A program made the translations under genes and the position numbers. A stretch of 64,000 nt of DNA from an uncultured Planctomycetota bacterium (lineage in GTDB: Bacteria > Planctomycetota > Planctomycetia > Pirellulales > PNKZ01): positions 1,540,719 to 1,604,718 of the forward strand of contig CAVPTO010000003.1 in NCBI GenBank assembly GCA_963708675.1, written 5' to 3'. The notes under the pieces are model-generated. The model made no database searches, was not told the DNA's origin, and saw only the letters and a program-made list of their open reading frames with translations. Of the stretch, positions 4,920 to 49,898 are shown piece after piece. The first letter of the stretch is position 1. Every line of letters begins with the position of its first letter.

Positions 4920-6971
<2,052 letters not shown>

Positions 6972-8077: not shown

Positions 8078-8146
8078 AATTCACTCCGCCGCTTACGACG
8101 GTCCTTTGTCACTACAAGTACTGGACAGACCTGTCGCTTGCAACGG

Positions 8147-9301: not shown

Positions 9302-9328
9302 GTCATCAGCATGATGCGACGACGGCGG

Positions 9329-11006: not shown

Positions 11007-11041
11007 CTGCCGCTCGCGCCCCCACCCTTAAGGAGTTTGCG

Positions 11042-11293
11042 ATGCTAGTGTTGTCGAGACAACGCGATGAGAGCATCATCATTGGCGACAACATCGTCAT
11101 CACGATCGTCGACATTCGCGGCGACAAGGTGCGGCTGGGGATCAATGCGCCGACGGAGATCCCCGTCCATCGTCGCGAAGTGTACGAGGCGATTCAGCGC
11201 GAAAACCTGAAGGCCAGCAACCTCGATCCTCGCGACGCGCGCTCGGTCGGCAAAGGCCCGGGGCCACGACCCGCGCCAGGCGAGAAGAAGTAA
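11042..11293 (+). CDS. csrA: carbon storage regulator CsrA
   Basis: [55 protein letters not shown]. An AAGGAG Shine-Dalgarno sits 7 nt upstream of the ATG. Confidence 0.95.
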
Positions 11294-11304
11294 CATCTCC
11301 CCAA

Positions 11305-11324
11305 GCCGCCGGCTCTGCCGGCGG
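11305..11324 (+). terminator. GC-rich hairpin after csrA (weak terminator candidate)
   Basis: GCCGCCGGC-tct-GCCGGCGG lies 12 nt after the csrA stop. No U-tract follows. Confidence 0.3.
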
Positions 11325-11430
11325 AACGACACCACAAGGCGCCGGCCCACGCGCCGATTGACCGCGCCCCTGCTCCGCGCCAAACTTGAGTTTTCGCGAC
11401 CTCCGAAACTCAAGACGATTGGCTCACTCC

Positions 11431-12290
11431 GTGACGGCAACGAAGCAGCTCATCCGCGTCGGGCATAGCCCCGACCCCGACGACGCGTTCATGTTCCACG
11501 CGCTCGCGAACGACAAGATCGACACCGGCGACTTTGAATTTCGTCACGAGCTGGTCGACATCGAAACGCTTAACCGCCGCGCGACCACCGGCGAGCTCGA
11601 GCTCACGGCCGTCAGCCTGCACGGGTATGCGTATCTGACCGACATTTACGCTCTGTGCCCCTGCGGAGCGAGCATGGGGGATGGCTATGGGCCGATGGTC
11701 GTCGGCGCGAGCCGATGAGCCTCGAAGCGCTCAAAAACAAAACGATCGCCGTCCCGGGAACCCGCACGACAGCATACCTCGCATTGCGATTGTGTCTGGG
11801 CGTCGACTTCAAATATGTCGTGGTGCCGTTCGACCAGATTCTCGACGCTGTCGAGAAGGGCCAATACGAAGGCAAGCCCATCGACGCTGGCCTCATCATT
11901 CACGAGGGGCAGCTCACTTACAGCTCACAGAACTTGTCGTTGATCGTCGACACCGGCAAGTGGTGGCTAGAAAAGACCGGGCTGCCGCTTCCGCTCGGCG
12001 CCAACGCCATTCGCAAGGATCTCGGCGCGAAGGCGATGCACGAGGTCAATCGCCTGCTCAAGGAAAGTATCCGCTACGGTCTGGAGCATCGGCAGGAAGC
12101 GCTCGATTACGCCCTGCGCTACGGCCGCGATTTGGATCGCTCGCAGGCCGACGAGTTCGTGGGCATGTACGTGAACGACTGGACGCTCGACTTTGGCCCG
12201 CGTGGGCGCGAGGCGGTGCGACTGTTGCTTGAGCACGGCTACAAGGCCGGTGTGATCCCGACACGCGTCGAGCCCGAATTCATCGATTAA
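11431..12290 (+). pseudogene. MqnA/MqnD/SBP-family (futalosine-pathway menaquinone biosynthesis-like) protein with an apparent frameshift at about 11701-11712
   Basis: Frame 1: ...[26 protein letters not shown]...[13 protein letters not shown]. Frame 2 continues [29 protein letters not shown]...IIHEGQLTY.... Inserting one nt after GTCGTCGG joins them. The start is uncertain (GTG 11431 or 11386). Confidence 0.75.
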
Positions 12291-12334
12291 AGGCCGCCGG
12301 CTTTTCGCGTAGTGAGCGCGGCCGGCACGCATCT

Positions 12335-12586
12335 ATGGCTGTGCCGGAACCATTACGCCCGCCGGAGCCTGTGAAGCCGCGAGGCTCGTTGTTGCCGATC
12401 GCGCTAGCGGGGATGCTCGCGATTATCGTCTGCACGGTGCTCTTCTTTTTGACGCTCGGCGGCTTCGGCGCGGTAATGGTGGTCGCCGCCGGCGTGTTCC
12501 TCGTCGGAGCGTTTCACTACGTGGTGTGGGGATGGTGGCTGAGCGCCGCCATCCGCGAAGACGTCGAGGCGGATGAACGCGACTAA
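12335..12586 (+). CDS. small two-TM membrane protein
   Basis: 83 aa with two hydrophobic segments (LLPIALAGMLAIIVCTVLFFL, GAVMVVAAGVFLVGAFHYVVWGWWL). Confidence 0.45.
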   Translation: MAVPEPLRPPEPVKPRGSLLPIALAGMLAIIVCTVLFFLTLGGFGAVMVVAAGVFLVGAFHYVVWGWWLSAAIREDVEADERD

Positions 12587-36609: not shown

Positions 36610-38124
36610 TCATTTGCCGCTGCCTCGAGCCTTCACTTGAATGTGAGGCTCGGGCTCGGCGTTGAGTAGCGCTCGAAGTTGCTCGACGACCTTCGGCTGG
36701 TCAGTGGCCTGGTTTCGCGTCTCGTCCGGATCGGCCACATAGTCGTAGAGTTCGAGTTCTGCCGTATCCGCTGGCGCGCCGGACTTTTTCCATTCCACGA
36801 GTCGATATCTCGGCGTTCGCACGGCGCGGCCGAGCAGTCCGTTGCGCGGATAAACATGAATGACCGCCTCGCGATGAGGTGTCGCTGGATCATTCAAGAC
36901 AACGGCAAAGCTGCGGCCATCAACTCCAGCCGGCAGTGATTCGTCGGCCAGTTCACACAACGTCGGATAAATGTCCACCGTTTCGACGAGGGCTTCGGTA
37001 TGTGCGACCGATCGAGGTCGCCGTGGATCGACGACGATCAATGGAATGTGCGTTGCTTGTTCGTAGTTGGTGTGCTTACACCACATGCCATGGTCGCCGA
37101 GGTGCCATCCGTGATCGCCCCAAAGCACGACAATCGTGTTCGCCGCGAGCCCTGTCTCATCCAACGTGTCGAGCACCTTGCCGATTTGCGCATCCATGTA
37201 ACTCACGGCAGCGTGATAACCATGAATAAGCGTTCGTTGCAGTTCGGGCTTTAACGGTCCCGATTCGGGAATGGCGGCATACTGTCGCAACTCGCCGCCA
37301 AACTGCGGAGCGTAGCTCGGTGCTCCATCAGGTGGCGTTTGCCTCGGCGCGGGTTTGAAGGACGACCGGTCATAGAGATCCCAATAGCGCTTCGGTGCAC
37401 AGAACGGAAGGTGCGGCTTTACGAAACCTACCGCGAGCAAGAATGGCTCGTCCGGTTTCGCCGCGGCTGACTTCAAACGTCGCCCGGCCTCCTCGGCGAT
37501 GCGGCCATCGGGATACGCATCGTCGTCGACATCGGCGGCTTCGTAAGCTGCGCCGCGTGGCAACCCCTTCGCCGATTTGTTGGCGAACAGCGCTTCCTCG
37601 CGCGTCAATTCACCTTCGTGACCTTGTGGAAGGGCATAGGCGACGACATCCCCTTTCCATGACGGAACCGTCCACGACGCATCGTCATCGTGATTGCCGT
37701 GTCCGACATGGAACACCTTGCCGATAGATTCGGTGCGGTAGCCATGCCGCATGAATTGCTGCGGTAGGGTTACGACTTCGGGCCGCGCGACGCGAAAGTT
37801 CGTGCCGAGATCGTAGATGCCCAAAGTCTGTGGGCGCAACGCCGTGAGCAACGCATTGCGCGACGGCGCACAAACTGCCTGGTTGCAGTACGCTCGGTCG
37901 AACACGATGCCACGCGACGCGAGACGATCGATGTTCGGCGACTTCACGGTCTTGTCGCCGTAGCATCCCAATAAAGGTTTCAGATCGTCGACGCATATCA
38001 GCAAAACGTTCGGTCGATTCGCCGCTTGCGATTCAGCGTGTAGCGCCATCGCCACCGCGACGAACGCTGCGAGAACCCAACAACAGAATTGACGACTACT
38101 GGTCGCCTTGAATGAGCTGAGCAT
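36610..38124 (-). CDS. sulfatase (iduronate-2-sulfatase-like; formylglycine type)
   Basis: Signal peptide, then NRPNVLLICVDDLKP...CNQAVCAPSRNALLT (the C-x-P-S-R formylglycine motif). Confidence 0.85.
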   Translation of the reverse strand: MLSSFKATSSRQFCCWVLAAFVAVAMALHAESQAANRPNVLLICVDDLKPLLGCYGDKTVKSPNIDRLASRGIVFDRAYCNQAVCAPSRNALLTALRPQTLGIYDLGTNFRVARPEVVTLPQQFMRHGYRTESIGKVFHVGHGNHDDDASWTVPSWKGDVVAYALPQGHEGELTREEALFANKSAKGLPRGAAYEAADVDDDAYPDGRIAEEAGRRLKSAAAKPDEPFLLAVGFVKPHLPFCAPKRYWDLYDRSSFKPAPRQTPPDGAPSYAPQFGGELRQYAAIPESGPLKPELQRTLIHGYHAAVSYMDAQIGKVLDTLDETGLAANTIVVLWGDHGWHLGDHGMWCKHTNYEQATHIPLIVVDPRRPRSVAHTEALVETVDIYPTLCELADESLPAGVDGRSFAVVLNDPATPHREAVIHVYPRNGLLGRAVRTPRYRLVEWKKSGAPADTAELELYDYVADPDETRNQATDQPKVVEQLRALLNAEPEPHIQVKARGSGK

Positions 38125-40030
38125 TGAGCGACTTCAACGTCTCGGGTTCGATTTTGATCACGCGTCGATCGTAGGTCATGAACCCGTTCACCTCGCCTTC
38201 GACGTCGGTTGTCTGCGTGTAAACGGCGGCCGATAGCCCGAGGTTGCGATGCATCGGCACCAGCGCCTCGACCTTCTTGGTCAATGCAGCGACATAGGCT
38301 TCACGATCGTGATACGTCTGATAGCCCCAATTGCGCGTCGCGGGATCCCAGAGACGACCGTCGATCGGCCAACCGACGCCGCCGTACTCGCCGATGACGA
38401 TGGCGCGGTCGGGCTTCGCCATCGGCGCCAGCGGCAGCTCTTGATAGGTGTGAATGTCGTAGACGTCGCCAAGGTTTTCGTCGAGCCAACCCGACGTGGC
38501 ATTCACCCATCGCGATGGATCGATCGACTTGAGCCACGGTGTAAGCGAGGCCGTTTCGTATTGACCCCACCCTTCGTTGTGGAGCACCCACATCACGATG
38601 CTCGGATGGTTGTAGAGCCTCGCCACCATCCGTCGCAGTTCGAGTTCATGTTGCTCGCGACTTCCCGAATGACGAATCGCCTCGCCGCTGGCTTCGCGGC
38701 CGACGCCCGTTCCGCGGCGGAATCCCGACGGCATGTCCTGCCACACGAGCAGGCCGAGGCGATCGCAATGGTAGTAATACCGGTCGGGCTCAACCTTGAT
38801 GTGCTTGCGAAGCATGTTGAAGCCCGCGTTCTTCAGCCACTCAAGCTCCCAAACCATTGCGGCATCGGACGGCGGAGTGAGCAGTCCGTCGGGCCACCAA
38901 CCTTGGTCGAGCGGGCCATGCTGAAACACCGCGCGGCCGTTCAGCAGCAACACCGGTTGCTGTTCCACCGACGACGGGCCAAGCGTGAGCTCGCGCATGG
39001 CGAAGTACGAGGTCACCGAGTCGAGCGGTTGGCCGACGACCTTCGCCTTGGCATACGCGGCACGTTCCACCTCGCCGAAGGCCGGAAGCGGTTTTGCCCC
39101 TTTCGTCGCCGGCTTCCGGGGGTTCTCGACGTTCACGAGTTCGGCCGTCAGATCGTAGAGAAACGGATCGTCGGGTGACCACAGATGCGGCTCGGAAATG
39201 TCGAGCCATCCTTTACGATTGACGCGAACGATGGTCGTCGCCACCGGCTTCCCGTCGTGACGGGCGGTCAATCGAACGGCAAGGCGATCGTCGGGCGTCG
39301 ACTCGTTGACGAACGCTTCGACAAGAAGTCGCTTACGCGGCACGTCGGGAGTCAGTCGCAACTCGGCAAGGTGCATCGCCTTCGGCACTGGTTCGAGCCA
39401 CACCGTTTGCCAGATGCCCGAGACGGGCGTGTACCAAATGCCTTGCGGCTTCAGTTGCTGCTTGCCGCGAGGCTGTTCCCCCATGTCGGTCGGATCGACC
39501 ACTGACACGATGAGTGTGTTCTCGCCGTCGCGAAGATACGCCGTCACGTCGAACGTGAACGCGTCATTGCCACCTTGATGCGAACCGACGAGCGCATTGT
39601 TCACGAACACCGTGCATTCATAGTCGACGCCGCCGAAATGCAGCAGCACCCTTTGATCGTTCCACTCCTTCGGAATGCTGAACGTGCGGCGATACCAAAG
39701 GCGATCGTCGGGCGTGAACGTCTTACCCACGCCCGACAACGCCGATTCAACCGCGAATGGCACGAGTATCTTGTCGTCGAACTTCGTCGGCGCGGCACTC
39801 GTCTTCGGAAGGATGGCGTAGTCCCACAGGCCGTTGAGATTCTGCCAGCCCTGTCGCACGAATTGCGGCCGCGGATACTCCGTCCATGCGTTCTCCGGTC
39901 GCACGGCCTCGCCCCACTCGGTCATTAACCGCGGGTTCGCGGGATGCCACGTCTCGTCGGCTCGAACAAAGGTAGAGACGCAAAGCAGAACCGAAACGAC
40001 GACGGCAAATAACGAACGTTCACGGGCCAT
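38096..40030 (-). CDS. glycoside hydrolase family 2 protein
   Basis: Signal peptide. Sugar-binding domain motifs (WYRRTF...HFGGVDYECTVFVNNALVG), ...MLRKHIKVEP...MWVLHNEGWG (TIM barrel with NE catalytic acid). Confidence 0.75.
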   Translation of the reverse strand: MARERSLFAVVVSVLLCVSTFVRADETWHPANPRLMTEWGEAVRPENAWTEYPRPQFVRQGWQNLNGLWDYAILPKTSAAPTKFDDKILVPFAVESALSGVGKTFTPDDRLWYRRTFSIPKEWNDQRVLLHFGGVDYECTVFVNNALVGSHQGGNDAFTFDVTAYLRDGENTLIVSVVDPTDMGEQPRGKQQLKPQGIWYTPVSGIWQTVWLEPVPKAMHLAELRLTPDVPRKRLLVEAFVNESTPDDRLAVRLTARHDGKPVATTIVRVNRKGWLDISEPHLWSPDDPFLYDLTAELVNVENPRKPATKGAKPLPAFGEVERAAYAKAKVVGQPLDSVTSYFAMRELTLGPSSVEQQPVLLLNGRAVFQHGPLDQGWWPDGLLTPPSDAAMVWELEWLKNAGFNMLRKHIKVEPDRYYYHCDRLGLLVWQDMPSGFRRGTGVGREASGEAIRHSGSREQHELELRRMVARLYNHPSIVMWVLHNEGWGQYETASLTPWLKSIDPSRWVNATSGWLDENLGDVYDIHTYQELPLAPMAKPDRAIVIGEYGGVGWPIDGRLWDPATRNWGYQTYHDREAYVAALTKKVEALVPMHRNLGLSAAVYTQTTDVEGEVNGFMTYDRRVIKIEPETLKSLNAQLIQGDQ

Positions 40031-40099
40031 GGGCGAGCTCTCGCGGCGTGAGTGATGCTGACGCCGAGTGTAATCGAGCCACGACCGCGGCGACAGCGT

Positions 40100-41581
40100 T
40101 CAATCGCCGAGCGTCGATTTCCGCCGCAGGATGTGGTGATAGTGCTGCGCGAAGCGATGGGCCTCATCTCTCACGTATTGCAGCAATCGGAGCGCGTACG
40201 AATGCCGGCTCAGGCGCAGAGGTTCCGAAACACCGGCGATGAAGATCTCTTCCTCGCGCTTGGCCAGCGAAATGACCGTAGGTGGTTGCAGCTCCAACTC
40301 GCGAAACGCCGCCAGCCCTGCGTTAAGCTGCCCCTTGCCGCCGTCGATCAGCAGGATGTCGGGCTTCGGATCGCCGTCATCGCTTAACCGTTTGAACCTT
40401 CGCGCCACCACTTCGTGAATGCTCGCAAAGTCGTCGATCCCTTCGACGCCGCGAATCTTGTAACGCTTGTAGCCCGGTTTGAACGGCACGCCGTCGATGA
40501 ACTGCACGAGGCTCGCGACCGTCTCGCCACCACCCAGGTGCGCAATGTCGACACCTTCGATCGTCCGCGGCGTCTCGTCGAGTTGCAGCACCTTCTTCAA
40601 TCCCGCCAGCCCGCGCTTCGGGTCGATGTAGAACACCTCAGGCTGAGCGTGCGTCGACAGTTCGCCGCGTCGATCGAGCGTTTCGAGCATCTGAATCTCG
40701 TCGCGCAGTCGGGCGGCCTTCTCGAACCGTCGCCCCTCGGCCGCTTTCTTCATTTCGCGACGCATGCTGTTCAGCAGCCGATCTTTCTTCCCCTCGAGCA
40801 CCATGCGCAGCTTGGCGATGTCGCGGCGATAGTCCTCTTTCGAGATCCGCATGTTGCATGGCGCGGTGCACTGGTCGATGCTCGCGAGCAAACAGGGGCG
40901 AAACCATCGCCAACGGTCGTCCCCTTCCTCGATGTCCAGCGAGCACGTGCGGAACTTGAAGATCTTCTGCAGCACCTGGATCGCCCCGCGAAGGCTGCCG
41001 GCACTTGTGAACGGCCCGTACAGTTTCGTCCCGCGAGTCTCCGGCTTTCGGGTGAACTCGATACGTGGGAAATCCTCGCGCGTCGTCAGCTGCAGATAGG
41101 GGAACGTCTTGTTGTCTTTCAGCTCCTGATTGAACTTCGGCTGAATGTCCTTGATCAACCGCGCCTCGGCCAACAGAGCGTCGACTTCGCTGTCGCAGGC
41201 CAGAAAATCGATATCGGCGATCTCGCGCGTCAGCTCGGCCGTGCGTCGTTCTTCGGCGGCGGCTTTCAGGAAGTAACTCCCCGCACGGCTGCGCAGGTTC
41301 GTTGCCTTGCCGATGTAAATGACCGTCCCCGCGGCGTCCTTCATCAGATACACGCCTGGCGTGGTCGGAAACTCGCGCACCTTCGCCGCTGCGGCACGAA
41401 ACGCCTCGCGGCGCGTGCTCAAATAGGTCGCCTCGACGGCGGGCGCCGCTGGCTCGGGCGGCGGAGCTTCTTCCTCCGTAACCTCGGCAACTTCCTCGAA
41501 TTCGTCGCTAAATTCGTCGCCGTCAATCATGCTGCTTTCCTGGCGCCACGCATCTTGGGCCCTACGCGGCGTTCCTGGCAA
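40100..41581 (-). CDS. uvrC: excinuclease ABC subunit C (short form lacking the C-terminal HhH2 domain)
   Basis: GIY-YIG motif GVYLMKDAAGTVIYIGKATNLRSRAGSYF; endonuclease domain IEGVDIAHLGG...LLIDGGKGQLN...VRDEAHRFA. The ORF ends ...HHILRRKSTLGD*, just where the (HhH)2 domain normally begins. Confidence 0.85.
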   Translation of the reverse strand: MPGTPRRAQDAWRQESSMIDGDEFSDEFEEVAEVTEEEAPPPEPAAPAVEATYLSTRREAFRAAAAKVREFPTTPGVYLMKDAAGTVIYIGKATNLRSRAGSYFLKAAAEERRTAELTREIADIDFLACDSEVDALLAEARLIKDIQPKFNQELKDNKTFPYLQLTTREDFPRIEFTRKPETRGTKLYGPFTSAGSLRGAIQVLQKIFKFRTCSLDIEEGDDRWRWFRPCLLASIDQCTAPCNMRISKEDYRRDIAKLRMVLEGKKDRLLNSMRREMKKAAEGRRFEKAARLRDEIQMLETLDRRGELSTHAQPEVFYIDPKRGLAGLKKVLQLDETPRTIEGVDIAHLGGGETVASLVQFIDGVPFKPGYKRYKIRGVEGIDDFASIHEVVARRFKRLSDDGDPKPDILLIDGGKGQLNAGLAAFRELELQPPTVISLAKREEEIFIAGVSEPLRLSRHSYALRLLQYVRDEAHRFAQHYHHILRRKSTLGD

Positions 41582-41669
41582 TCCGTTGGGTCCGTAGCTA
41601 TTGTATCTGCAAAGGGGAAGTGCCGGTCTTTACGCTTGCATGCCGAACCATTTATCCGGGAAACCATTC

Positions 41670-42503
41670 ATGCCCACGCCGCTATCACGTCGTCATTTCC
41701 TCAAAGCAGCCACCGCCACCGGCGTCGCCCTGATCGGTGCTCGCCACGCCTCCGCTGCCTTCGCCGCACCGGCCTACAAAGTCGGCATCCAGATGTACTC
41801 GCTCCGCGGCTACCCGGTCGACGTGGCCCTCAAGCACGCTCATGACCTCGGCTTCGAAGTCATCGAAATGTATCCCGTACAGTTCCCGATCAAGTCCGAC
41901 GACGAACAAATCGCCGCGACGAAGAAGAAGTTCGCCGAGCTGAACCTCAAATGCCTCGGCCACGGCGTGAACCGTTTTACCGCCGACGCCGAAGCCAACC
42001 GCCGCATCTTCGAGTTCGCCAAGAAGGCCGGCATTCGCAATCTGACGGCCGACCCCGATCCCGCCGCGTTCGACAACCTCGACAAGCTCGTCGAGGAGTT
42101 CGACATCCGCATCGCGATCCACAATCACGGCCCGTCGCACCGCTACAACAAGGTGACCGACGTCCTCAACGCCGTTCGCGATCATCACACCCACATCGGC
42201 GCCTGTGCCGACCTCGGCCACTACATCCGCAGCGGCGAAGACCCGGTCGAGGTGATCCGTTCGCTCAAGGGCCGCTTGTACGGCGTCCACCTCAAGGACT
42301 TCGCCGAGCAGAAGGAGAAGACCGAAGGCGTGATCCTTGGCAAAGGCCATCTCGACGTCCCCGCCGTCTTCCGCGCTCTGCGTCAGGTCGAGTTCCCCGC
42401 CGACGGCAGCTTGTCTCTCGAATACGAAGAGCACAAAGACAACCCGTTGGCCGACATCCGCGAGTGCCTCGCCATCGCCAACTCCGCCGCCCAATCGGCC
42501 TAG
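41670..42503 (+). CDS. Tat-signal sugar phosphate isomerase/epimerase (xylose isomerase-like TIM barrel)
   Basis: MPTPLSRRHFLKAATATGVALIGA is a twin-arginine signal. ...IAIHNHGPSH...GACADLGHY.... Confidence 0.75.
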   Translation: MPTPLSRRHFLKAATATGVALIGARHASAAFAAPAYKVGIQMYSLRGYPVDVALKHAHDLGFEVIEMYPVQFPIKSDDEQIAATKKKFAELNLKCLGHGVNRFTADAEANRRIFEFAKKAGIRNLTADPDPAAFDNLDKLVEEFDIRIAIHNHGPSHRYNKVTDVLNAVRDHHTHIGACADLGHYIRSGEDPVEVIRSLKGRLYGVHLKDFAEQKEKTEGVILGKGHLDVPAVFRALRQVEFPADGSLSLEYEEHKDNPLADIRECLAIANSAAQSA

Positions 42504-42547
42504 CGCGACACCGATCGAACGCCTCACCGCATCCAAAACCGCCTCGC

Positions 42548-42588
42548 ATTATTGCGCACCCTATAGACACGGGTTTATGCGCAATAAT
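42548..42588. repeat. 11-bp perfect inverted repeat with a 19-nt spacer at the left edge of the cassette-like array
   Basis: ATTATTGCGCA (42548-58) and TGCGCAATAAT (42578-88). Confidence 0.8.
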
Positions 42589-42665
42589 TCGGGGTGCGGA
42601 TAGTTCCTGCGCTCAGAAGTCAATGGATGAAGAGGCCGTTGCACAAGGCGATCGCGCTCGTCGAT

Positions 42666-42770
42666 CCGCAGGATCTTGACTGTTTTGGCTCGTTCGCTTC
42701 GATCACGGTAGAATGGCCATTAACTTTGCTAACGGTGAGCGGGTATCTGAGCTTCTTTTTTTCATTAGGT
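42666..42770 (+). repeat. array repeat copy 1 (attC-like / promoter-leader repeat)
   Basis: CCGCAGGATCTTGACTGTTTTGGCTCGTTCGCTTCGATCACGGTAGAATGG...GAGCGGGTATCTGAGC...ATTAGGT aligns with copies 2-6. Confidence 0.8.
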
Positions 42771-42793
42771 CCAACTCCGCGAAGTGTGTCCGC

Positions 42794-43036
42794 ATGTCGG
42801 AGCGTATCGAACCCCATAGAGCCGCTTCTTGGCCCTCGCAATTCAGTGTAAGGGCGCTGCTCCTGTTTGTTGGAGTCGTTTGTGTCTTGGCCGCAAGCTT
42901 AACTTGGGCTAAACGCCTCCTTGATGAATTGGATGAATTGGGCGAGGCAATGGTCCTTGGTGCGACAGGCCCCGTGGAGACAGAAAGCGCTTACCAGATG
43001 CGCTCAAGCCACTTATTCGCGGCGAGATCGGTCTAA
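42794..43036 (+). CDS. cassette ORF: N-terminally anchored small protein (possibly the 5' part of one gene continuing in 43054..43371)
   Basis: MSERIEPHRAASWPSQFSVRALLLFVGVVCVLAASL.... The adjacent frame is open from 42937 and reads ...ALKPLIRGEIGLKLDGKTLSVQC..., so a frameshift near 42990-43000 is possible. Confidence 0.45.
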   Translation: MSERIEPHRAASWPSQFSVRALLLFVGVVCVLAASLTWAKRLLDELDELGEAMVLGATGPVETESAYQMRSSHLFAARSV

Positions 43037-43053
43037 AGCTCGACGGAAAGACG

Positions 43054-43371
43054 TTGTCCGTTCAATGTTTGCAATCCGGATGGGATGCGGAATACGTTTG
43101 TAAATTTGCAGCCAATGAACAACTGCGCAACAAGATCATCACACAATTTGGGTTATCGCCCGTAACAATTCCTCCCCAATGGAGTCTATTCGTCCGTCAC
43201 TTCCCCCTCACGAGATCGCAGACACCGCCTTGGCAGATTCCGAAAGCGACCCAGTGCGACGCTTACTGTGCATCCGATGGTTTCATGAATCACGAACCGA
43301 ACGATCGATTTGAGATGCTGTATAAAGCTGATACTGGCGTTATCTATCTGCACCATTATTACGATTTCTGA
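43054..43371 (+). CDS. cassette ORF (hypothetical; possibly the 3' part of the preceding gene)
   Basis: ...LSVQCLQSGWDAEYVCKFAANEQLRNKIITQFGLSPVTIP...VIYLHHYYDF. No family recognised. Confidence 0.4.
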   Translation: MSVQCLQSGWDAEYVCKFAANEQLRNKIITQFGLSPVTIPPQWSLFVRHFPLTRSQTPPWQIPKATQCDAYCASDGFMNHEPNDRFEMLYKADTGVIYLHHYYDF

Positions 43372-43416
43372 GACATCATCGAACAACCCGATTGACCGCA
43401 GAATCCACGACTACAT

Positions 43417-44070
43417 TTGAGTTGCACTTGTTCGCGCAATTGGCATATTCGCTTGGGCCTTTACGAATACTTGGTGCGATTGGATGCTCGACGAGCGATT
43501 ATAGTAGGCAATGGTTTTTTCGGCCTTCTTTGGCTGTTGATAACCGGCTACGGATTGGCCTCCTTCTTTTCGCGTGATGTCCATGGCCTTGGAAAGATCG
43601 TCTGGATCGCGGGGAGTTTTTGGCTGGGAATCCTTCTCTCTATTGCACTACTGGTTGTCGCTCATCGACGAAGCGTGGCATGGCACATTGGGGCATGCAT
43701 TCCGGCAATCGTTTCCGTCTGCGTTCTCGCCCTCGCGTTTGCGGTAAATCCTCCGGTGCAAGAAGCCGCCCAGGTCGCCTTCAACAGCGCCGAGTGGAAG
43801 GGCAAGAAAGAAACCCGAAACGCAATGGTAAGCGACCTCATTGCACACCACCTTTCTACGGCAATGACTTCCGCCGACGTAGAGACCCTACTTGGTAGGC
43901 CGACCGAGTCCTATCGCTCCGAAGAACTGTTAAATCCATACCCGCGAGAATCGACGTTCTTTTTATTCTACGAGATGAAGCCGTGCGAAGGATGTCTTGA
44001 TTACAGCAGAATCGTAGTGTCGTTCGGCCCAGACGGCCGGTACCGCTTCGCAGAAGTACAAAACAAGTAG
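43417..44070 (+). CDS. cassette ORF: multi-TM membrane protein with a soluble C-terminal domain (start uncertain)
   Basis: Four hydrophobic segments (FFGLLWLLITGYGLASFF, IVWIAGSFWLGILLSIALLVV, IGACIPAIVSVCVLALAFAV). No ATG near the 5' end, so an alternative start is likely. Confidence 0.5.
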   Translation: MSCTCSRNWHIRLGLYEYLVRLDARRAIIVGNGFFGLLWLLITGYGLASFFSRDVHGLGKIVWIAGSFWLGILLSIALLVVAHRRSVAWHIGACIPAIVSVCVLALAFAVNPPVQEAAQVAFNSAEWKGKKETRNAMVSDLIAHHLSTAMTSADVETLLGRPTESYRSEELLNPYPRESTFFLFYEMKPCEGCLDYSRIVVSFGPDGRYRFAEVQNK

Positions 44071-44189
44071 CCCTTAAGGTTAGGACGTACGGGAGGGTAG
44101 AGGGTACAAGGGGACAGTCTACGTTATTGGGAATAAGTAGAATGTCCCTATTCTGTCCTCCTATTCTGTCCTCAATCGCTGCCGTGGAA

Positions 44190-44289
44190 CCGCAGCTACT
44201 TGGCGCGTTTTGATCGTTGACTTCGGCAGCGTTACAATCAGCCTTAACCCTGCTGATGTCGAGCGGGCAACTAATTTTCCTCGTAAGGC
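44190..44289 (+). repeat. array repeat copy 2
   Basis: CCGCAGCTACTTGGCGCGTTTTGATCGTTGACTTCGGCAGCGTTACAATCAGCCTTAACCCTGCTGATGTCGAGCGGGCAACTAA...GTAAGGC. Confidence 0.8.
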
Positions 44290-44299
44290 GAATGAAGTC

Positions 44300-44617
44300 G
44301 TGACGGACGAAACCGCGGGCCGGTGCGTTGTTTGTGGTGCACCGGGAAAGGTTCATTGCACGTCGGCAGACGCAAGAAGTTGTGCGTCATCGAGTCAATC
44401 GTTCTGCCTCGAACACTTCCCTGTCGAAATGCGCGACAAGCTGCCATTTGGGCCGCACAAGACTGCCGCTGAGGAGGTAGCGCTGCTTCGTAACAAACTC
44501 GCCGCGCTCGATTCACGAGCTATCGACGCTACCCTGCGAGACGAAATTCGCACTGAGTTGGAGCAAATCATCGCCGACATTGAGGCCGGTAGACGACGCC
44601 TAAGCGATCTCGCCTAA
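44300..44617 (+). CDS. cassette ORF: small Cys-containing (zinc-finger-like) protein with a coiled-coil tail
   Basis: From GTG 44300: TDETAGRCVVCGAPGKVHCTS...CLEHFP...EEVALLRNKLAALD.... Its stop codon TAA lies inside GCCTAAC (the R''-like box of copy 3). Confidence 0.5.
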   Translation: MTDETAGRCVVCGAPGKVHCTSADARSCASSSQSFCLEHFPVEMRDKLPFGPHKTAAEEVALLRNKLAALDSRAIDATLRDEIRTELEQIIADIEAGRRRLSDLA

Positions 44618-44735
44618 CAAGACGCAGCGGTTAACCCGCAACTTCTTGGCGCGTTTGGCTCGTTCGCTTCGGCTGCGGTACAATCAGCTTCAACCCTGCT
44701 CAACGTGGGCGGGCAACTGAGCCTTTTCGGTAGGC
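44612..44735 (+). repeat. array repeat copy 3 (best attC-like: GCCTAAC ... GGTAGGC, 124 bp)
   Basis: Outer complementary boxes are GCCTAAC and GGTAGGC. Inner stem is GGTTaACCCGC / GCGGGCAAC. The core is identical to the other copies, including TTGGCT-N18-TACAAT. Confidence 0.85.
44655..44684 (+). promoter_or_regulatory. sigma-70-like -35/-10 motif inside the array repeat (example from copy 3)
   Basis: TTGGCT, 18 nt, TACAAT. The motif is conserved in position in copies 3-5 (TTGGCT or TTGGTT). Copies 1 and 6 carry TAGAAT as the -10. Copy 2 has a degenerate -35 (TTGATC). Confidence 0.4.
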
Positions 44736-44737
44736 CG

Positions 44738-45277
44738 ATGATGCCGAGGCCAAGATTCACGCTCTCACAGTTTCTTTTAATCGCGACATGGTGCGCTATC
44801 TCGGCCATGATCACTGTCCGGTATTTTGCAGCGAGACCGTACGCCGGAGAATTCCCGGACATTCAAGAAGCGACGTATCCCAGTTCCGGACTCGATCGAG
44901 ACTGGTCGACAACAATTACTCCCGATGTCATTGCACGCTTACCAACTTGGCATCCAGCAGATCAGAATCCACCGGTTAGTGCATATTCCGCCCTTTCGAT
45001 TGCGAATCGCTACCGACGCGACCATCTTCGTGATCGAAACGATTGGAAATGGATTCTTGAATCGATCGCGCTCATTCCAATTGACGGCAAAAACAACAAG
45101 TGGTGCTGGTCGGTCAGTTTTGCAGCGTACCCTGAAAGTGGAGGATCAAGTGGCTGTCCCACGCTCTCGGTTTTCGTGAGAATGGACGGAACAGTCATCG
45201 AGCCCACTTCTGAAGCGCAGCATGCTAGGGTCGACATGGGGATTCTTGAGACACACGTCATCGGGCACAGGAACTAA
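44738..45277 (+). CDS. cassette ORF: N-terminally anchored hypothetical protein
   Basis: MMPRPRFTLSQFLLIATWCAISAMITV... is an anchor. The ATG lies 2 nt after the GGTAGGC box. Confidence 0.55.
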   Translation: MMPRPRFTLSQFLLIATWCAISAMITVRYFAARPYAGEFPDIQEATYPSSGLDRDWSTTITPDVIARLPTWHPADQNPPVSAYSALSIANRYRRDHLRDRNDWKWILESIALIPIDGKNNKWCWSVSFAAYPESGGSSGCPTLSVFVRMDGTVIEPTSEAQHARVDMGILETHVIGHRN

Positions 45278-45282
45278 CGCCG

Positions 45283-45404
45283 TCCTAACCGTTCGCTCCA
45301 GTTGACCGCAGGTTCTTGGCGCGTTTGGCTCGTTCCCTTCAGTCACGGTACAATCGGCTTCAACCCTGCTGACGGTCAGCGGCAACTGAGTCTTTTTGTT
45401 AGGT
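45283..45404 (+). repeat. array repeat copy 4 (TCCTAAC ... GTTAGGT, 122 bp)
   Basis: Outer CCTAAC/GTTAGG are complementary. Inner stem is CAGTTGaCCGC / GCGGCAACTG. Confidence 0.85.
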
Positions 45405-45406
45405 CT

Positions 45407-45874
45407 ATGTGGTGTCGTATCAAACGACTTGCCTTTCCCGCTCTTTGCTGGATTGTCACGTTCGTGTCTGCGATCGGCGTGTGGCTCTTCGGTGCAGCGA
45501 TTTTGAACGTTATCGCTGCAAGATCATGGCCAGCGTGTGAGTGCTTGATAAAGAACGCTGCAATCGAAACGCAGCGAGGCAATAGTCGCGTCAAGGTCGA
45601 GTACGAGTACATCGTCGGACAGACCACGTATACGTCTTCTCGCTATAAATTCCTTCACGGCTACACAAGCTGGCGAAAAGTCCTTCCGGCAGGCTTGGTT
45701 TCTGGCGCACGTGCTAAGTGCTTTGTCGACCCCGGCAATCCAAACAGTGCGGTCATCGAGCGCGGCATGACCTGGGATATGCTCTTCGGCCTTATTCCCT
45801 TGCTCCTCTTCATTATTTGTGGCCCAGCTGCGGTAGCGACCATTTTCGCGCGAAGCGACCTATCTAATCGCTGA
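45407..45874 (+). CDS. cassette ORF: DUF3592-like membrane protein
   Basis: MWCRIKRLAFPALCWIVTFVSAIGVWLFGAAIL...GNSRVKVEYEYIVGQTTYTSSRY... with a C-terminal TM segment. This architecture is typical of DUF3592. Confidence 0.6.
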   Translation: MWCRIKRLAFPALCWIVTFVSAIGVWLFGAAILNVIAARSWPACECLIKNAAIETQRGNSRVKVEYEYIVGQTTYTSSRYKFLHGYTSWRKVLPAGLVSGARAKCFVDPGNPNSAVIERGMTWDMLFGLIPLLLFIICGPAAVATIFARSDLSNR

Positions 45875-45981
45875 AAGTTGCTCCGCAGGTTCTCGGGCAT
45901 TTGGTTCGTTCGCTTCGGTCACGCTACAATCAGCTTCAACCCTGCTGGCGTGCAGCGAGCAACTGGGCCTTTTCGTTAGGC
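45862..45981 (+). repeat. array repeat copy 5 (ATCTAAT ... GTTAGGC, 120 bp)
   Basis: Inner stem is AGTTGCTCcGC / GCGAGCAACT, which covaries relative to copies 3 and 4. Confidence 0.85.
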
Positions 45982-45983
45982 AT

Positions 45984-46472
45984 ATGAACGAGCTTATCGC
46001 GCTGATCGATGATGCGTTTGATAAGCGACCTCGCCCAGACGATTGGGATATCACGCACTGCACCTACGACAAGAAATACGGAGGTTCCTTTAACGGGCCT
46101 TGCGGCGAGTGCGCCAGGATGTCCGCTTTTTTCAAAGGGAAATCCTGGCGACATCTTACGGGCAAAGAGTTGCATCGCGAGGGTCAGTCGGCCGGTCTCT
46201 TTACAGTTCCGGCATACTGCTATTTTCTTCCTGCATTTTTAATCGCGGCAATACGGGAACGCGAAGACGCCGACGTTTGCGTTGACCATCTCGCGTATAC
46301 TTTTGGTCCTAAAAGCGACAACAAATGGGCTACGGACCGGGCAGCACACATCTTCGCGCAACTGAGTGTCGAAGAGCGAGAGGCAACTTTAGCGTACTTT
46401 CGCTTGGCTCTATCTGGTGACGGAGACTTTGACGGTTATTGTGAGCGCGCTATCCGCACGCTTAGCGCGTAA
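45984..46472 (+). CDS. cassette ORF: hypothetical cytoplasmic protein
   Basis: MNELIALIDDAFDKRPRPDDWDITHCTYDKKYGG.... The ATG lies 2 nt after GTTAGGC. No family recognised. Confidence 0.55.
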   Translation: MNELIALIDDAFDKRPRPDDWDITHCTYDKKYGGSFNGPCGECARMSAFFKGKSWRHLTGKELHREGQSAGLFTVPAYCYFLPAFLIAAIREREDADVCVDHLAYTFGPKSDNKWATDRAAHIFAQLSVEEREATLAYFRLALSGDGDFDGYCERAIRTLSA

Positions 46473-46526
46473 CCGTTCTCTGGCTCTCAAGAACAAAGGC
46501 GGTTCGTGATTCGCTGTCGACAACAC

Positions 46527-46850
46527 TGGAATGCCCCGGATTTCTGTACCAGGGATTATGAGAGTATGGGTTGGGTAAACGAAACGGCAGTGTGCTGCTG
46601 GAGTGAGGGCTGAGGCGCAGCCGAAGCCCGAACGGAAGCAGCACACTGCCGTGCGAACTCCGCCGGGGTCTGGTAGCCAAGACTGCTGTGCGGTCGCTCC
46701 TGGTTGTGCTCGTGCAGCCGTCGCTGGGCGAACCAACGAGCCTCGGCCAGGTTCATGAACTCTTCCACGTTCAACAACTCGTCTCGCAGCCGACTGAAGA
46801 ACGATTCGGCATAGCCGTTCTGCCACGGCGCACCAGGCTCGATGTACAAC
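46527..46850 (-). repeat. extra copy of the IS left end (IR plus the 3' part of orfB)
   Basis: ORFs 46556..46849 and 46880..47263 share the identical C-terminal tract YIEPGAPWQNGYAESFFSRLRDELLNVEEF... Confidence 0.8.
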
Positions 46851-46879
46851 TGGAATGCCCCGGATTTCTGTACCAGGGA

Positions 46880-47801
46880 TTATGAGAGTATGGGTTGGGT
46901 AAACGAAACGGCAGTGTGCTGCTGGAGTGAGGGCTGAGGCGCAGCCGAAGCCCGAACGGAAGCAGCACACTGCCGTGCGAACTCCGCCGGGGTCTGGTAG
47001 CCAAGACTGCTGTGCGGTCGCTCCTGGTTGTGCTCGTGCAGCCGTCGCTGGGCGAACCAACGAGCCTCGGCCAGGTTCATGAACTCTTCCACGTTCAACA
47101 ACTCGTCTCGCAGCCGACTGAAGAACGATTCGGCATAGCCGTTCTGCCACGGCGCACCAGGCTCGATGTACAACAGCTCCAGGCCCGCGCCGGGCATGTC
47201 CACGGATCGCCGTCGCGATGAACTCCGGGCCGTTGTCGCTGCGAACATGCTCGGGAACGCCACGTGTCAGGAACAGGTGCGTCAGAACGTCGAGCACCCG
47301 CTCGGCCGGCAGGCTCCGATCGACCTCCAACGCCAGGCATTCACGCGTGTATTCATCGGTGATCGCGAACCACTTCAGCGGTCGACCCGACGCCGTACGA
47401 TCGTGAATGAAGTCCCAAGTCCAAACGTGATCCTTCCGCTCTGCACGACGCCGCACACAGCTGTTGGCACTGTGCCCCAAACGACGGCGTTTCACGGTTC
47501 TTTTCGGCACTTTCAAGCCCTCACGCTGCCACAGACGGTACACCCGCTTGAAGTTCACACGCCACCCCGCTTGTCGCAACTTCGCCGTCATCATCCGATA
47601 GCCGTAACGCGGATACCGCGCCGCCAACGCGTGCAGATCCTTCACCAGCCGCTGCTCTTCGAGCGAGTCTTCGTTCGCTCGATATCGTTGCGTGCTACGC
47701 GGCTGACCCAACGCCTGACATGCCCGACGCTCACTCACGCACTGCCGCTGCCGAACGTAGTCGACCGCAGCGCATCGTCGCGCCGGGCTCAGTAGTTTCC
47801 C
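46880..47801 (-). pseudogene. IS3-family transposase OrfB (DDE integrase core) with an extra frameshift at about 47200-47212
   Basis: ...SPARRCAAVDYVRQRQCVSERRACQALGQPRSTQRY...WTWDFIHDRT...VRSDNGPEFIATAIR, then a frame change, then VDMPGAGLELLYIEPGAPWQNGYAESF...RPHSSLGYQTP. Confidence 0.75.
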
Positions 47802-48067
47802 TCAAGCGCCTCTTTCAAGATCGCCTTGTCCAGTTCCGCCTCGGCCAGCAGCTTCTTCAAACGCTTGTTCTCACCCTCCAACTCTTTCAGTCGCTTCGCC
47901 TCTTCCGACTTCATTCCGCCATATTGATTCCGCCAGCGATGCAGTGTCTGCTCGCTGATCTCCAACGACTGCACCACCTGGCCAATCGTCTTGCCCGCCG
48001 CCAGCATCGTCTCCGCCTCGCGAAGCTTCTTGATGATCTGCTCCGCCGAATGCTTCTTGCCTTTCAT
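47789..48067 (-). CDS. IS3-family transposase OrfA (HTH)
   Basis: MKGKKHSAEQIIKKLREAETMLAAGKTIGQVVQSLEISEQTLHRWRNQYGGMKSEEAKRLKELEGENKRLKKLLAE is the IS3/IS911 OrfA pattern with a leucine zipper. Confidence 0.9.
   Translation of the reverse strand: MKGKKHSAEQIIKKLREAETMLAAGKTIGQVVQSLEISEQTLHRWRNQYGGMKSEEAKRLKELEGENKRLKKLLAEAELDKAILKEALEGNY
47795..47801 (-). promoter_or_regulatory. programmed -1 ribosomal frameshift heptamer G_GGA_AAC at the orfA/orfB overlap
   Basis: The minus strand reads GAG GGA AAC TAC TGA. orfB continues in the -1 frame as GGG AAA CTA CTG AGC.... This fits the X_XXY_YYZ pattern. Confidence 0.7.
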
Positions 48068-48176
48068 CGAAAGTCCTCCTGCCCAAAATGGGCCAATGGA
48101 CTCTCATACCACCCGGATCAAGATTTGGGGAGCATTCCAACACTCGCTGCAACCGATCCCTGCCCGGCGGCCGCCG

Positions 48177-48983
48177 ATGCTTCTCGTCGTGTTTACGGTG
48201 ATGCTGACAGCATTGCCGAGTTGTGAATGCGATTCGCTAAAAACTCAAATCGCTTGGGTTCACGCTACAAAGACGCCTCGAGAGTTATCCGAACGGACGA
48301 GCGCGTTATATGAAACCGCAAGTCCAAGTCGGCTGCGAGCTCTTGAAGCGGCGAAGGAAACCGACATCGCCTTGTCGGCATCGTGGGAATCGGTGCGACG
48401 AATTTCGATCCTCGCCGGCGGCAATGAGCAGGAGGCCTTCAACGCGAAAGCGATCTCTTCCTTTCTAAGCATCGTGGAACGTCGCACCGGTACTCCCTTG
48501 CCGCTGTTCTGGCGATCCGTCTTGAAAACGGCTCGCTTCAATAATCGAAGGATGACGCATTTTGCGGAGCCGAGTGACTACGAGCTTTTCGCTGCCATTG
48601 CCGATTCCGTTCGTGACTCACCACGCCAAGAAACTTGGCGCAAAGCGTTCTCTTCAACACCGATGGGCGGAAAACTCGCCATGACGACCGCCAGTGGCGT
48701 TGTCTACATCTCGCTTTACCAAGACCGGCCGCACAAGCACCCACTTTATGCTGTTGATGAAGCAACGGGGCGACTCCTTTGGGAGTCGACGGTGTGGTCA
48801 GAGTGGGTTGGGGTTAGCCATTCGGGGCCAACATGGACATGCGAATTGCTAACCGTCCGGCCGTCAGATGAGTTGACCGTGTTCGGGATCTCGGGTTCGT
48901 TGTTCTTTGTCGAGTCGTTTGACGCCAGAACCGGGGTCAATCTGGGGCGATTCTGCACGGCCTTCGTTGAGTACAACCTCTAA
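48177..48983 (+). CDS. cassette ORF: putative lipoprotein/secreted hypothetical protein
   Basis: MLLVVFTVMLTALPSC-ECDS... is a signal plus a Cys. The part of ORF 47991..48983 that reads through the IS end is discarded. Confidence 0.55.
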   Translation: MLLVVFTVMLTALPSCECDSLKTQIAWVHATKTPRELSERTSALYETASPSRLRALEAAKETDIALSASWESVRRISILAGGNEQEAFNAKAISSFLSIVERRTGTPLPLFWRSVLKTARFNNRRMTHFAEPSDYELFAAIADSVRDSPRQETWRKAFSSTPMGGKLAMTTASGVVYISLYQDRPHKHPLYAVDEATGRLLWESTVWSEWVGVSHSGPTWTCELLTVRPSDELTVFGISGSLFFVESFDARTGVNLGRFCTAFVEYNL

Positions 48984-49039
48984 ACGTTTCCCGATTGTCT
49001 AGCGCACTGGCAATTCGGAGCGTTCATATCCTTTTGTCC

Positions 49040-49150
49040 GTCGCCGCGGTTAACCATAGGTTCTTGACGCGTTTGGCTCGCTCACTTCGGATGCGTTAGA
49101 ATGACCTCCAATCCCTAACGACGGTCAGCGGGCAACCGAGCTCAGGCGAC
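49040..49150 (+). repeat. array repeat copy 6 (outer stem GTCGCC/GGCGAC), immediately upstream of tRNA-Leu
   Basis: GGTTCTTGACGCGTTTGGCTCGCTCACTTCGGATGCGTTAGAATGACC...GGTCAGCGGGCAACCGAGC aligns with copies 1-5. The inner stem CGGTT/AACCG covaries. Confidence 0.8.
49073..49102 (+). promoter_or_regulatory. sigma-70-like promoter candidate for tRNA-Leu (inside repeat copy 6)
   Basis: TTGGCT, 18 nt, TAGAAT, about 104 nt upstream of the mature tRNA 5' end. Confidence 0.4.
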
Positions 49151-49205
49151 ATCATGCTTCGCGGACGGACTAGAATTGTCGAAAACTGTTACTGGGTAAG
49201 CACAA

Positions 49206-49287
<82 letters not shown>

Positions 49288-49334
49288 TTCTCTTTCATGG
49301 CGTCGGCCGGATTCGCAAACTCGTCGAGGAAACT

Positions 49335-49898
49335 GTGAAAGTCATCCAAACGGCCTTCCTCGTCCTAATCTGCCTGTGCTCGTCAGACGTGGGCAGAGCT
49401 GCCCAGCGCAATTACGACGAGGTACAACGCGAACTCGAATACGCCCGAGCGGTGCTGGCGAAAACCACCATTGATTTGTCCAAAGCCATTGTGATTGCGC
49501 AGGAGAAAGTGCCAACGGGCAAACCGATCTACGCCATCACCGAAAAGGGGCATGGCAAGCTCATGTATGAAGTGTTCTTTCTCGTCGGTGATTTGGTGAC
49601 TGAAGTCAAAGTCGACGCGATCACGAGCGAAATCGTGAAGATCGAAAAAGACGAAGGCGACGACATCGATCACCTGTCAGATGCAAAGAAAGGGCTAGGC
49701 CTCTCGAAGATCAGCTTCACTGAGGCGATTGCAACAGCGCTTGACAAGGTTGAAGGCGGAAAGCCGTTCAAAGTTGAGTTTGAAGCGAAAGACGGCACGA
49801 TCGCCATCGAGGTCGAACTCGTCGCCGGCGACAAAACCGTGATGGTTGAGATTGACCCGGCAACTGGCACGGTGTCGATGGTCGAAGAGAAGGACTAA
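49335..49898 (+). CDS. secreted PepSY-domain protein (two PepSY-like repeats)
   Basis: GTG 49335 follows a GAGGA Shine-Dalgarno. VKVIQTAFLVLICLCSS is a signal peptide. ...DLSKAIVIAQEKVPTGKPIYAITEK... and ...ISFTEAIATALDKVEGGKPFKVEFE.... Confidence 0.65.
   Translation: MKVIQTAFLVLICLCSSDVGRAAQRNYDEVQRELEYARAVLAKTTIDLSKAIVIAQEKVPTGKPIYAITEKGHGKLMYEVFFLVGDLVTEVKVDAITSEIVKIEKDEGDDIDHLSDAKKGLGLSKISFTEAIATALDKVEGGKPFKVEFEAKDGTIAIEVELVAGDKTVMVEIDPATGTVSMVEEKD

Follow-up and report, generated by a model that had tools for sequence, protein, structure and literature searches.

A probable integrase-less integron cassette array in a planctomycete, with a promoter-like centre in its attC family

A stretch of 64,000 nucleotides from contig CAVPTO010000003.1 of an uncultured Planctomycetota bacterium (Pirellulales), referred to below as the window, carries at positions 42645-49150 an array in which six plus-strand copies of a repeat of 120-129 nt lie between eight small plus-strand open reading frames (ORFs). 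We conclude that this region is very probably an integron-type cassette array without an integrase, that is, a cluster of attC sites lacking integron-integrase (CALIN; Cury 2016). This assignment follows from the combined evidence of site geometry, relatives and genomic context. Our preference goes further, although by a modest lean only, to a CALIN with an attC family of its own, the centre of which would serve as promoter and leader.

Repeat finding, MAFFT alignment and nhmmer recovered the same six copies at approximately 42645-42770, 44167-44289, 44612-44735, 45283-45404, 45858-45981 and 49031-49150. We name them by the starts assigned in an earlier reading of the DNA (the sequence-only reading), namely 42666, 44190, 44612, 45283, 45862 and 49040. 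Twenty-two positions are invariant across the six window copies, and the core pattern that they define (TTTNGNTCGNTNNCTTCNNNNNCGNTANAATNNNCNNNAA), with at most three mismatches allowed, matched only these copies in the 64 kb and nothing in 100 shuffled sequences. The G+C content is 51-54% at 43-46 kb, compared with about 60-62% in the flanks. The eight cassette ORFs are mutually unrelated and none has a housekeeping function; family searches gave only DUF3592, DUF6714 and some weak matches, and PADLOC found no defence-system match among the eight. Thus far the sequence-only reading, which had described a single-strand run of small, AT-richer ORFs of no recognisable housekeeping function punctuated by six repeats, was borne out. 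The two degenerate copies that it had added, at 43390 and at the site of an insertion sequence (IS), were upheld in part: remnants of a 5′ arm are present at both places, but neither is a full copy and nhmmer detects neither.

Outside the window the repeat is rare. In a collection of one genome per GTDB species (185,579 species, the source genome itself lying outside this set), the core pattern matched once, in a metagenome-assembled genome of the Planctomycetaceae (locus L001). Metagenome contigs supplied three further copies of the family (L002, L003 and L004), and a scan of viral contigs with the core pattern gave no match. This distribution bears on the idea that the repeat is an intergenic element of the REP (repetitive extragenic palindrome) or MITE (miniature inverted-repeat transposable element) kind, or that a gene and its upstream region were duplicated in tandem. 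The repeat is indeed short, intergenic and partly palindromic. However, all copies lie on one strand within 6.5 kb and none elsewhere in the 64 kb, the matches in the species and metagenome sets number one and three, the intervening ORFs are unrelated, and we saw neither terminal inverted repeats nor target duplications. We regard such an origin as very improbable.

In a folded attC site, each arm contributes to an R box (RYYYAAC/GTTRRRY) and has 5-6 nt of spacer that stay unpaired; the double-prime arm also has two extrahelical bases, one at position 16 and one at position 23/24, separated by a stem of 6 bp, and the base at 23/24 is a T on the bottom strand (Nivina 2016, PMC5027507). The length of the copies falls within the known attC range of 57-141 bp (PMC5027507). 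Copy 45283 displays this layout base by base. Its 5′ arm reads TCCTAAC (1-7), CGTTC (8-12), GCT (13-15), C (16), CAGTTG (17-22), A (23) and CCGC, and it pairs with the 3′ arm GCGG-CAACTG-AGT-CTTTTT-GTTAGGT, the 6-bp stem CAGTTG/CAACTG lying between bulges at positions 16 and 23 from R″. The minimum-energy fold of this copy shows both R and L boxes. Copy 44612 is in the same register with three stem mismatches, while in 45862 the bulge is shifted and there is one additional base. In 44612, 45283, L002 and L003, the 5′ spacer has a length of 5 nt and the 3′ spacer one of 6 nt. As R″/R′ boxes we read TCCTAAC/GTTAGGT in 45283, GCCTAAC/GGTAGGC in 44612 and ACCTATC/GTTAGGC in 45862, and the two boxes are complementary at 7/7 positions in L002 and at 6/7 in L003. 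Position 23 is a top-strand A (bottom-strand T) in 44612, 45283, L001 and L003 and a C in L002; position 16 is a bottom-strand G in 45283 alone and a C in the others. The consensus of the attC sites in this clade is suggested to be R″-N5-3 bp-N-6 bp-A.

The placement of the boxes relative to the genes is as had been claimed at the outset. The TAA stop codon of the preceding ORF lies inside GCCTAAC at 44612, TCCTAAC stands at 45283, and GGTAGGC, GTTAGGT and GTTAGGC each end 2 nt before the ATG codons at 44738, 45407 and 45984; the lengths of 124, 122 and 120 nt for the three best copies were likewise confirmed. The original description of an unpaired stretch of 7-9 nt followed by a bulged stem needs adjustment: the bulged-stem layout stands, but the order that we prefer is a spacer of 5 nt, then a stem of 3 bp (GCT/AGC), a first bulge, the 6-bp stem, a second bulge and a further stem. 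In an alignment of ten copies (the six of the window and L001-L004), 74% of the arm cells are paired, as opposed to 27-46% with slid partners, and compensatory change is clearest in the stem that reads CCGC/GCGG in the window and CCCTGC/GCAGGG in L002 and L003. RNAalifold on the same alignment returned only a small 3′ hairpin and a 3-bp stem.

The link to integrons proper comes from the relatives. The L001 copy (5169-5292) begins 16 nt past the stop codon of a truncated tyrosine recombinase gene, the product of which has as its best NCBIfam match the integron integrase model TIGR02249 (113.6 bits, model positions 248-313 of 315), compared with 80 bits for XerD. This copy is the first of at least four attC sites: further sites of the same geometry lie at 6193-6283, 6685-6792 and 7873-7978, each after a small ORF. 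The site at 6685-6792 has the arms of the family, GCCTAAC..CTGCAGTTGACCGG / CCGGCAACTGAGCCTTTTACGTTGGGC, around a different centre. The first unit after the intI remnant contains no gene and is little more than the attC of the family. In L002 and L003 the boxes and stems of the copies are perfect; both copies stand in same-strand arrays, where the family occurs beside apparent shorter attC sites; the latter were recognised by their end boxes and fold only, and a geometry scanner was negative on them. On the minus strand of L004 (approximately 633-503), the repeat has its promoter core and 3′ half but lacks the 5′ R″/L″ arm; an esterase-like gene with an internal stop precedes it, and a 2Fe-2S ferredoxin-like ORF follows. 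This copy may represent the edge of an array, or it may hint at where the promoter module came from.

In a search with the IntI remnant, the best 120 matches were all short pieces of IntI (62-156 amino acids), many of them planctomycete and some with the IntI-specific patch. Among these 120, some fragments lie on megabase contigs and one on the chromosome of Lignipirellula cremea, and internal deletions were noted in P0020 and P0041. Decay of intI seems very common in this clade. The surroundings of six remnants (L005, L006, L008, L018, L019 and L020) all contain small same-strand ORFs directly after the remnant. The purpose-written scanner for the exact attC geometry, which in its strict form gave one match in 20 shuffled windows (0.05 per 64 kb), detected canonical sites in five of the six contexts, L008 being the exception, with 3-5 sites per array and five in a row in L019. 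The nhmmer search with the family profile found no copies over loci L005-L021, and these arrays use other attC families. A related situation was met at L013, which encodes a member of one of the only two homologue clusters of cassette ORF5 among 5.8 billion proteins and has a same-strand array of small ORFs with a canonical-geometry attC site of a different family.

The DNA at the 3′ end of intI is conserved up to GATAAACAC(T)A/GTT and then diverges between loci. The sequence GATAAACACTA/GTT, the slash marking the junction, looks like an attI junction that falls within the intI coding region, or at its end, in these same-strand integrons. At the 3′ end of the remnants we also noticed a conserved inverted repeat, GCGTTATCnTGC...GCATGATAAAC, followed by ACTA/GTT, after which the loci diverge; it is found at L001:5080-5145, L005:8560-8600 and 10400-10440, L006:4800-4845, L008:1800-1845 and L018:705-760. 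Two of the loci have further peculiarities. On the 1.6-Mb contig of L005, two IntI C-terminal fragments (8356-8592 and 10001-10435) lie 1.4 kb apart on the same strand, each followed by an ORF of its own. In L019, the remnant heads a cassette array of about ten ORFs (4693-7956), one of which encodes an Imm7 immunity protein, with resolvase and PglZ genes nearby; directly upstream of the remnant and divergent from it, a full-length Phage_integrase gene of 411 codons occupies 8139-9374 on the minus strand.

Within the window, tblastn with the L001 remnant and the 120 IntI fragments found nothing, so that the earlier statement that no intI is adjacent holds for the whole 64 kb, and an intI gene and attI site adjoining the array, as in a complete sedentary integron, are missing from the window. 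What is present are two or three competent-looking and three decayed sites in 6.5 kb. The features shared with a CALIN are a cluster of two or more same-strand attC sites within 4 kb, interposed single ORFs that are small and of unknown function, the lack of a nearby intI, an IS inside the array and a G+C content below that of the host flanks. The array differs from the typical short CALIN in its one homogeneous family, which is more like a sedentary integron, in the decay of half of the sites and in the promoter-like centre. Together with the site geometry, the association with IntI remnants and the mixed arrays, the absence of intI from the window supports the original proposal of a planctomycete-type CALIN with its own attC family.

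Two further systems invite comparison. With the Vibrio cholerae repeats (VCRs, about 123-128 bp) the family shares its length of 120-129 bp, its restriction to a species or clade with shared sequence, a long terminal structure and the layout of R box, unpaired spacer, L box and extrahelical bases. VCRs fold as long imperfect hairpins along their whole length. In contrast, the centre of the window copies folds no better than chance and reads as a -35/-10 pair, and neither an integrase nor an attI accompanies them. In Treponema, integrons are known in which intI lies on the cassette strand, and they are matched by the arrays that directly follow the 3′ end of an intI remnant on the same strand (L001, L005, L006, L008, L018 and L019); the window, however, is without intI, and the intI genes of this clade seen beside these arrays are all truncated.

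The array is decaying, for the most part already decayed, and is probably immobile now. Only the unit of ORF6, approximately 45399-45975, has an intact crossover site at either end. R boxes or stems are missing from three or four of the six copies, whereas the promoter core is kept in all six; in addition, the left end is cut inside the first attC and an IS3 element sits in one site. The sequence-only reading, correct as it was on the overall layout, overlooked that half of the copies are no longer plausible recombination substrates and that the conserved centre is promoter-like rather than structural. From the sequences we infer past or present recombination competence of the sites. Since the first site is truncated, the array most likely arose when an integron lost its integrase end or had it rearranged. 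The left edge is this truncated attC, abutting a sugar-phosphate isomerase gene. A relative (L010) is 92% identical to the window at the DNA level over 37979-42644; all similarity stops right at the 5′ boundary of the first copy (42644), and L010 has other genes downstream. A more distant relative (L011) also differs past the isomerase gene.

The most conserved part of the repeat is neither the R boxes nor the stems, but a centre of about 45 nt. Mean column identity is 0.97 for the -10 element (TAnAAT) and 0.92 for the -35 element (TTTGGCTCG region), compared with 0.63-0.68 for R boxes and spacers, 0.73 for the 5′ stem arm and 0.90 for the 3′ stem arm; mismatches amount to 55 of 430 positions in the core and 196 of 700 in the arms. 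A promoter scan of 42400-49400 returned five sigma-70-like sites, all on the plus strand and all at the same place in the repeats. The core reads TTGGCT-N18-TA(C/G)AAT in the five copies found by the scanner; the sixth, 45862, has TTGGTT as its -35 element, and 44190 has a spacer of N17. In all six the core faces the next ORF, 55-60 nt before the ATG. The pattern TTGNNN-N16-18-TANAAT occurs seven times on the plus strand of the 64 kb and never on the minus strand, and six of the seven occurrences are the repeats. Furthermore, variation in the hexamers falls on position 3 of the -10 element and positions 4-6 of the -35 element, where sigma-70 promoters tolerate change, and a TAGAAT stands 10 nt upstream of a tRNA-Gln gene in the same genome.

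Downstream of the core, a mini-hairpin of 7 bp (alignment columns 91-97 with 103-110; for example CCCTGCT...AGCGGG at 45364-45382) is paired in 90% of cases compared with 25-51% for slid partners, and one pair flips from CG to GC in three copies. This hairpin uses the GGG that would close the innermost attC stem and would therefore be an alternative fold for an RNA that starts inside the site. In addition, the R′ box puts an AGG 3-5 nt before each ATG. Because the centre is conserved, unpaired, promoter-like and kept in decayed copies, we propose an attC family that would provide a promoter and a leader for the next cassette. That the centre functions as a promoter has, in our judgement, an even chance or slightly better. 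Whether other attC centres of the clade carry promoters is a question for which our sample is too small to generalise: the site at L001 6685-6792 scans as TTGACC-16-GATAAT, that at L001 7873-7978 shows TGGTAGAAT by eye, and by eye no such motif is present in L018.

The principal competing explanation accepts a genuine CALIN with its own attC family and denies that the centre is a promoter. The conservation of the centre would then reflect a shared recent origin, binding of the integrase or a host factor, or a part in the hairpin, and the promoter match would be coincidental. Homogeneity is a known property of attC sites in sedentary chromosomal integrons (Cury 2016), a portion of the centre is indeed base-paired when the strand of L002 or L003 is folded, and the chance of a promoter-like match on one strand of a 125-nt element is about 0.03 as estimated from the shuffle rate. 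However, the centre is better conserved than the arms carrying the recombination signals, it has remained intact in the three copies with decayed arms, and substitutions in it spare the key promoter positions. In the window copies the centre is unpaired: the partner of the -35 element in L002 and L003, CCAAGCC, reads TCAACCC there and is not complementary. Nor is the centre needed for the geometry of the arms, because L001 6685-6792 combines the same arms with another centre. We consider this explanation unlikely, though it is the most serious of the alternatives.

Several results weigh against the joint reading of a CALIN with promoter-bearing attC sites. On the side of the arms, the strict geometry scan of the window passes 45283 alone, one copy of six; the relaxed form adds 44612, at a rate of about 2.5 matches per shuffled window. 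In 44612 the GTT of R′ has mutated to GGT, and R boxes as well as most of the pairing are gone from 42666, 44190 and 49040. Folds of the six whole copies as single-stranded DNA, on both strands, gave z-scores of -1.3 to +1.3 relative to shuffles (-3.5/-3.2 for L002, the only one to stand out, and -1.0/-1.75 for L003), and hairpin stability is not usable as evidence because the window copies fold no better than shuffles. The second stem had been said to covary between copies, which is true to a modest extent in that the arms pair, but a covariation score as high was also obtained with 47 of 500 shuffles, and compensatory change within the family is weak. Duplex energies of cognate and swapped arms were -13.8 and -11.3 kcal/mol, respectively, a weak test since the arms are too alike between copies. 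Next to the repeat family, an IntI remnant was the only trace of the integrase and no full-length IntI was seen. On the side of the centre, the argument for a promoter is one of consensus and conservation alone, and the six window copies amount to one evolutionary observation and are not independent. The core identity of L001-L004 is inflated because these copies were found with the core pattern, and the 18-nt spacer is suboptimal. Moreover, promoters called by computation in cassettes have proved a poor guide to activity (Blanco et al.), which also favours a coincidental match.

Another explanation sees no integron element at all, but a promoter/leader or regulatory module that was copied ahead of each of a cluster of small genes, for example a co-regulated island, and that has box-like ends by accident. 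The best conserved part of the repeat is the promoter core, L004 has core and 3′ half without the 5′ arm before the ferredoxin-like ORF, three of the six window copies lack R boxes, and the folds are not significant. Against this, the canonical attC geometry (positions 16 and 23, the 6-bp spacing and the bottom-strand T) arises at the low false-positive rate of the strict scanner, the family is found directly next to an IntI remnant and in the company of other attC sites, stop codons lie in or beside R″ and start codons 2 nt past R′, and Rfam 15, searched over the region at gathering thresholds and at E<=1, returned only tRNAs and no family for the repeat. This module hypothesis is accordingly improbable, and we retain the CALIN with a promoter-like attC family.

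The mechanism that we envisage on this basis is as follows. On a host chromosome of Pirellulales/Planctomycetaceae type, each unit would consist of one small ORF followed by an attC of about 122-125 bp of the clade-specific family. The arms of the attC would carry the parts read by the integrase on the folded bottom strand, namely the R box, the 5/6-nt spacer, the L stem and two extrahelical bases, while the centre of about 45 nt would act as a sigma-70-type promoter, TTGGCT-N18-TA(C/G)AAT, directed toward the next cassette. Transcription is predicted to start about 7 nt past the -10 element and to yield a leader of about 50 nt, with the 7-bp hairpin first and the R′ box last. Such a promoter would serve the downstream cassette and, in an excised circle, the cassette's own ORF. 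If each attC gives a promoter and a leader, expression would therefore be independent of position and of any Pc promoter. That the family combines a recombination site with a portable promoter/leader, and that selection has kept the promoter half after the loss of the integrase while the recombination half decays, is a more tentative proposal, to which we give somewhat less than an even chance.

The accepted view is that integron cassettes lack promoters and that their expression depends on how far they lie from Pc. Cassettes are stated to "rarely contain promoters" (Cury 2016), and the known cassette promoters are located in 5′ untranslated regions or in gene-less promoter cassettes of Treponema and Vibrionaceae; in Vibrio sp. 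DAT722 one sigma-70 promoter bridges an attC, and occasional transcription starts inside an attC are on record. The present array resembles these promoter cassettes and the DAT722 case in that promoters inside the array would drive downstream cassettes independently of Pc. The idea of a promoter cassette also fits because the first unit of L001 is gene-less and nearly all attC. In the published cases, however, the promoter belongs to the non-attC part of gene-less cassettes or represents a single instance, whereas here it would be built into an attC family with ORF-bearing cassettes. CALINs (Cury 2016), intI pseudogenes and planctomycete integrons have all been documented; we found no description in the literature of an attC family with a promoter as its conserved centre.

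The features of the array are listed in Table 1, with the ORF starts as corrected. With regard to the IS3 element, we observed that its left end is duplicated: a unit of about 300 bp at 46525-46824 occurs again 324 bp further on, at 46849-47148, with 100% identity. The duplication breaks the transposase frame and suggests either an incomplete IS copy next to a complete one or an artefact of assembly.

Table 1. Positions of the repeat copies, cassette ORFs and neighbouring elements in the window
Feature	Position	Strand	Remarks
attC-family copy 1	42645..42770	+	truncated/degenerate, no R″ box, R′ = ATTAGGT; core TTGGCT-N18-TAGAAT 42685-42714; left edge of array
Cassette ORF1	42794..43036	+	80 aa, no family match
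Cassette ORF2	43054..43371	+	105 aa, no family match; no attC between ORF1 and ORF2
attC 5′-arm remnant	43384..43401	+	GAACAAC-CC-GATTGACCGCAG; without core and 3′ arm; nhmmer-negative
Cassette ORF3	43417..44070	+	217 aa, membrane-protein look by eye; weak DUF6215 match only
attC-family copy 2	44167..44289	+	degenerate arms, R′ = GTAAGGC; core TTGATC-N17-TACAAT 44210-44238
Cassette ORF4	44300..44617	+	105 aa, GTG start, weak zf-HIT match; TAA stop within R″ GCCTAAC
attC-family copy 3	44612..44735	+	124 nt, canonical geometry; R″ GCCTAAC, R′ GGTAGGC (GTT lost); core 44655-44684
Cassette ORF5	44738..45277	+	179 aa; 2 homologue clusters only among 5.8e9 proteins
attC-family copy 4, best copy	45283..45404	+	122 nt; core 45325-45354
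Cassette ORF6	45407..45874	+	155 aa, DUF3592
attC-family copy 5, variant	45858..45981	+	R″ ACCTATC (or ATCTAAT), R′ GTTAGGC; core TTGGTT-N18-TACAAT 45901-45930
Cassette ORF7	45984..46472	+	162 aa, DUF6714
Decayed or different attC, IS-interrupted	left 46466..46526, right 48140-48176	+	GCGTAAC-CGTTC; family likeness in R″ box and spacer only
IS3-family insertion sequence	46527..48139	-	OrfA HTH_Tnp_1; OrfB HTH_21 + rve; flanking direct repeat ACAC
Cassette ORF8	48177..48983	+	268 aa; lipoprotein-type signal (LPSC) by eye; weak PQQ_2 match
attC-family copy 6	49031..49150	+	degenerate arms, no R boxes; core TTGGCT-N18-TAGAAT 49073-49102; right edge of array
tRNA-Leu(TAG)	49206..49287	+	flanking landmark, 55 nt past last copy

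Some observations concern the surroundings of the array. In L010, the isomerase gene is followed at 9107-12542 by genes for an FGE-sulfatase, a DUF559 protein and a bAvd protein and by a further large ORF, that is, by a different variable insert at the chromosomal position of the array; bAvd is an accessory protein of diversity-generating retroelements. On the other side of the shared segment, a sulfatase gene of 504 codons lies on the minus strand of the window (36610-38124), and the region of approximately 36668-37978 has no counterpart in L010. Upstream of the tRNA-Leu gene (window 49150-49205), the sequence GCTTCGCGGACGGACTAGAAT resembles the repeat core GCTTCGGTCACGGTACAAT. The notion that copy 6 is the promoter of this tRNA gene was dropped, as tRNA-Leu has its own TAGAAT 29 nt upstream.

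The expression of CALIN genes is an open question (Cury 2016). If the proposal made here is true, a simple promoter built into the attC would keep every cassette active even in arrays without an integrase, such arrays would be expressed throughout without a Pc promoter, and the promoter core would be predicted to outlive the recombination arms. Our analysis also adds records of integron remnants and arrays from Planctomycetes, a group in which integrons have received little study, and gives an attC consensus for the clade. Should promoter-bearing attC sites be general in same-strand integrons of the Treponema and planctomycete type, the model that only the first cassettes are expressed would have to be revised for these integrons.

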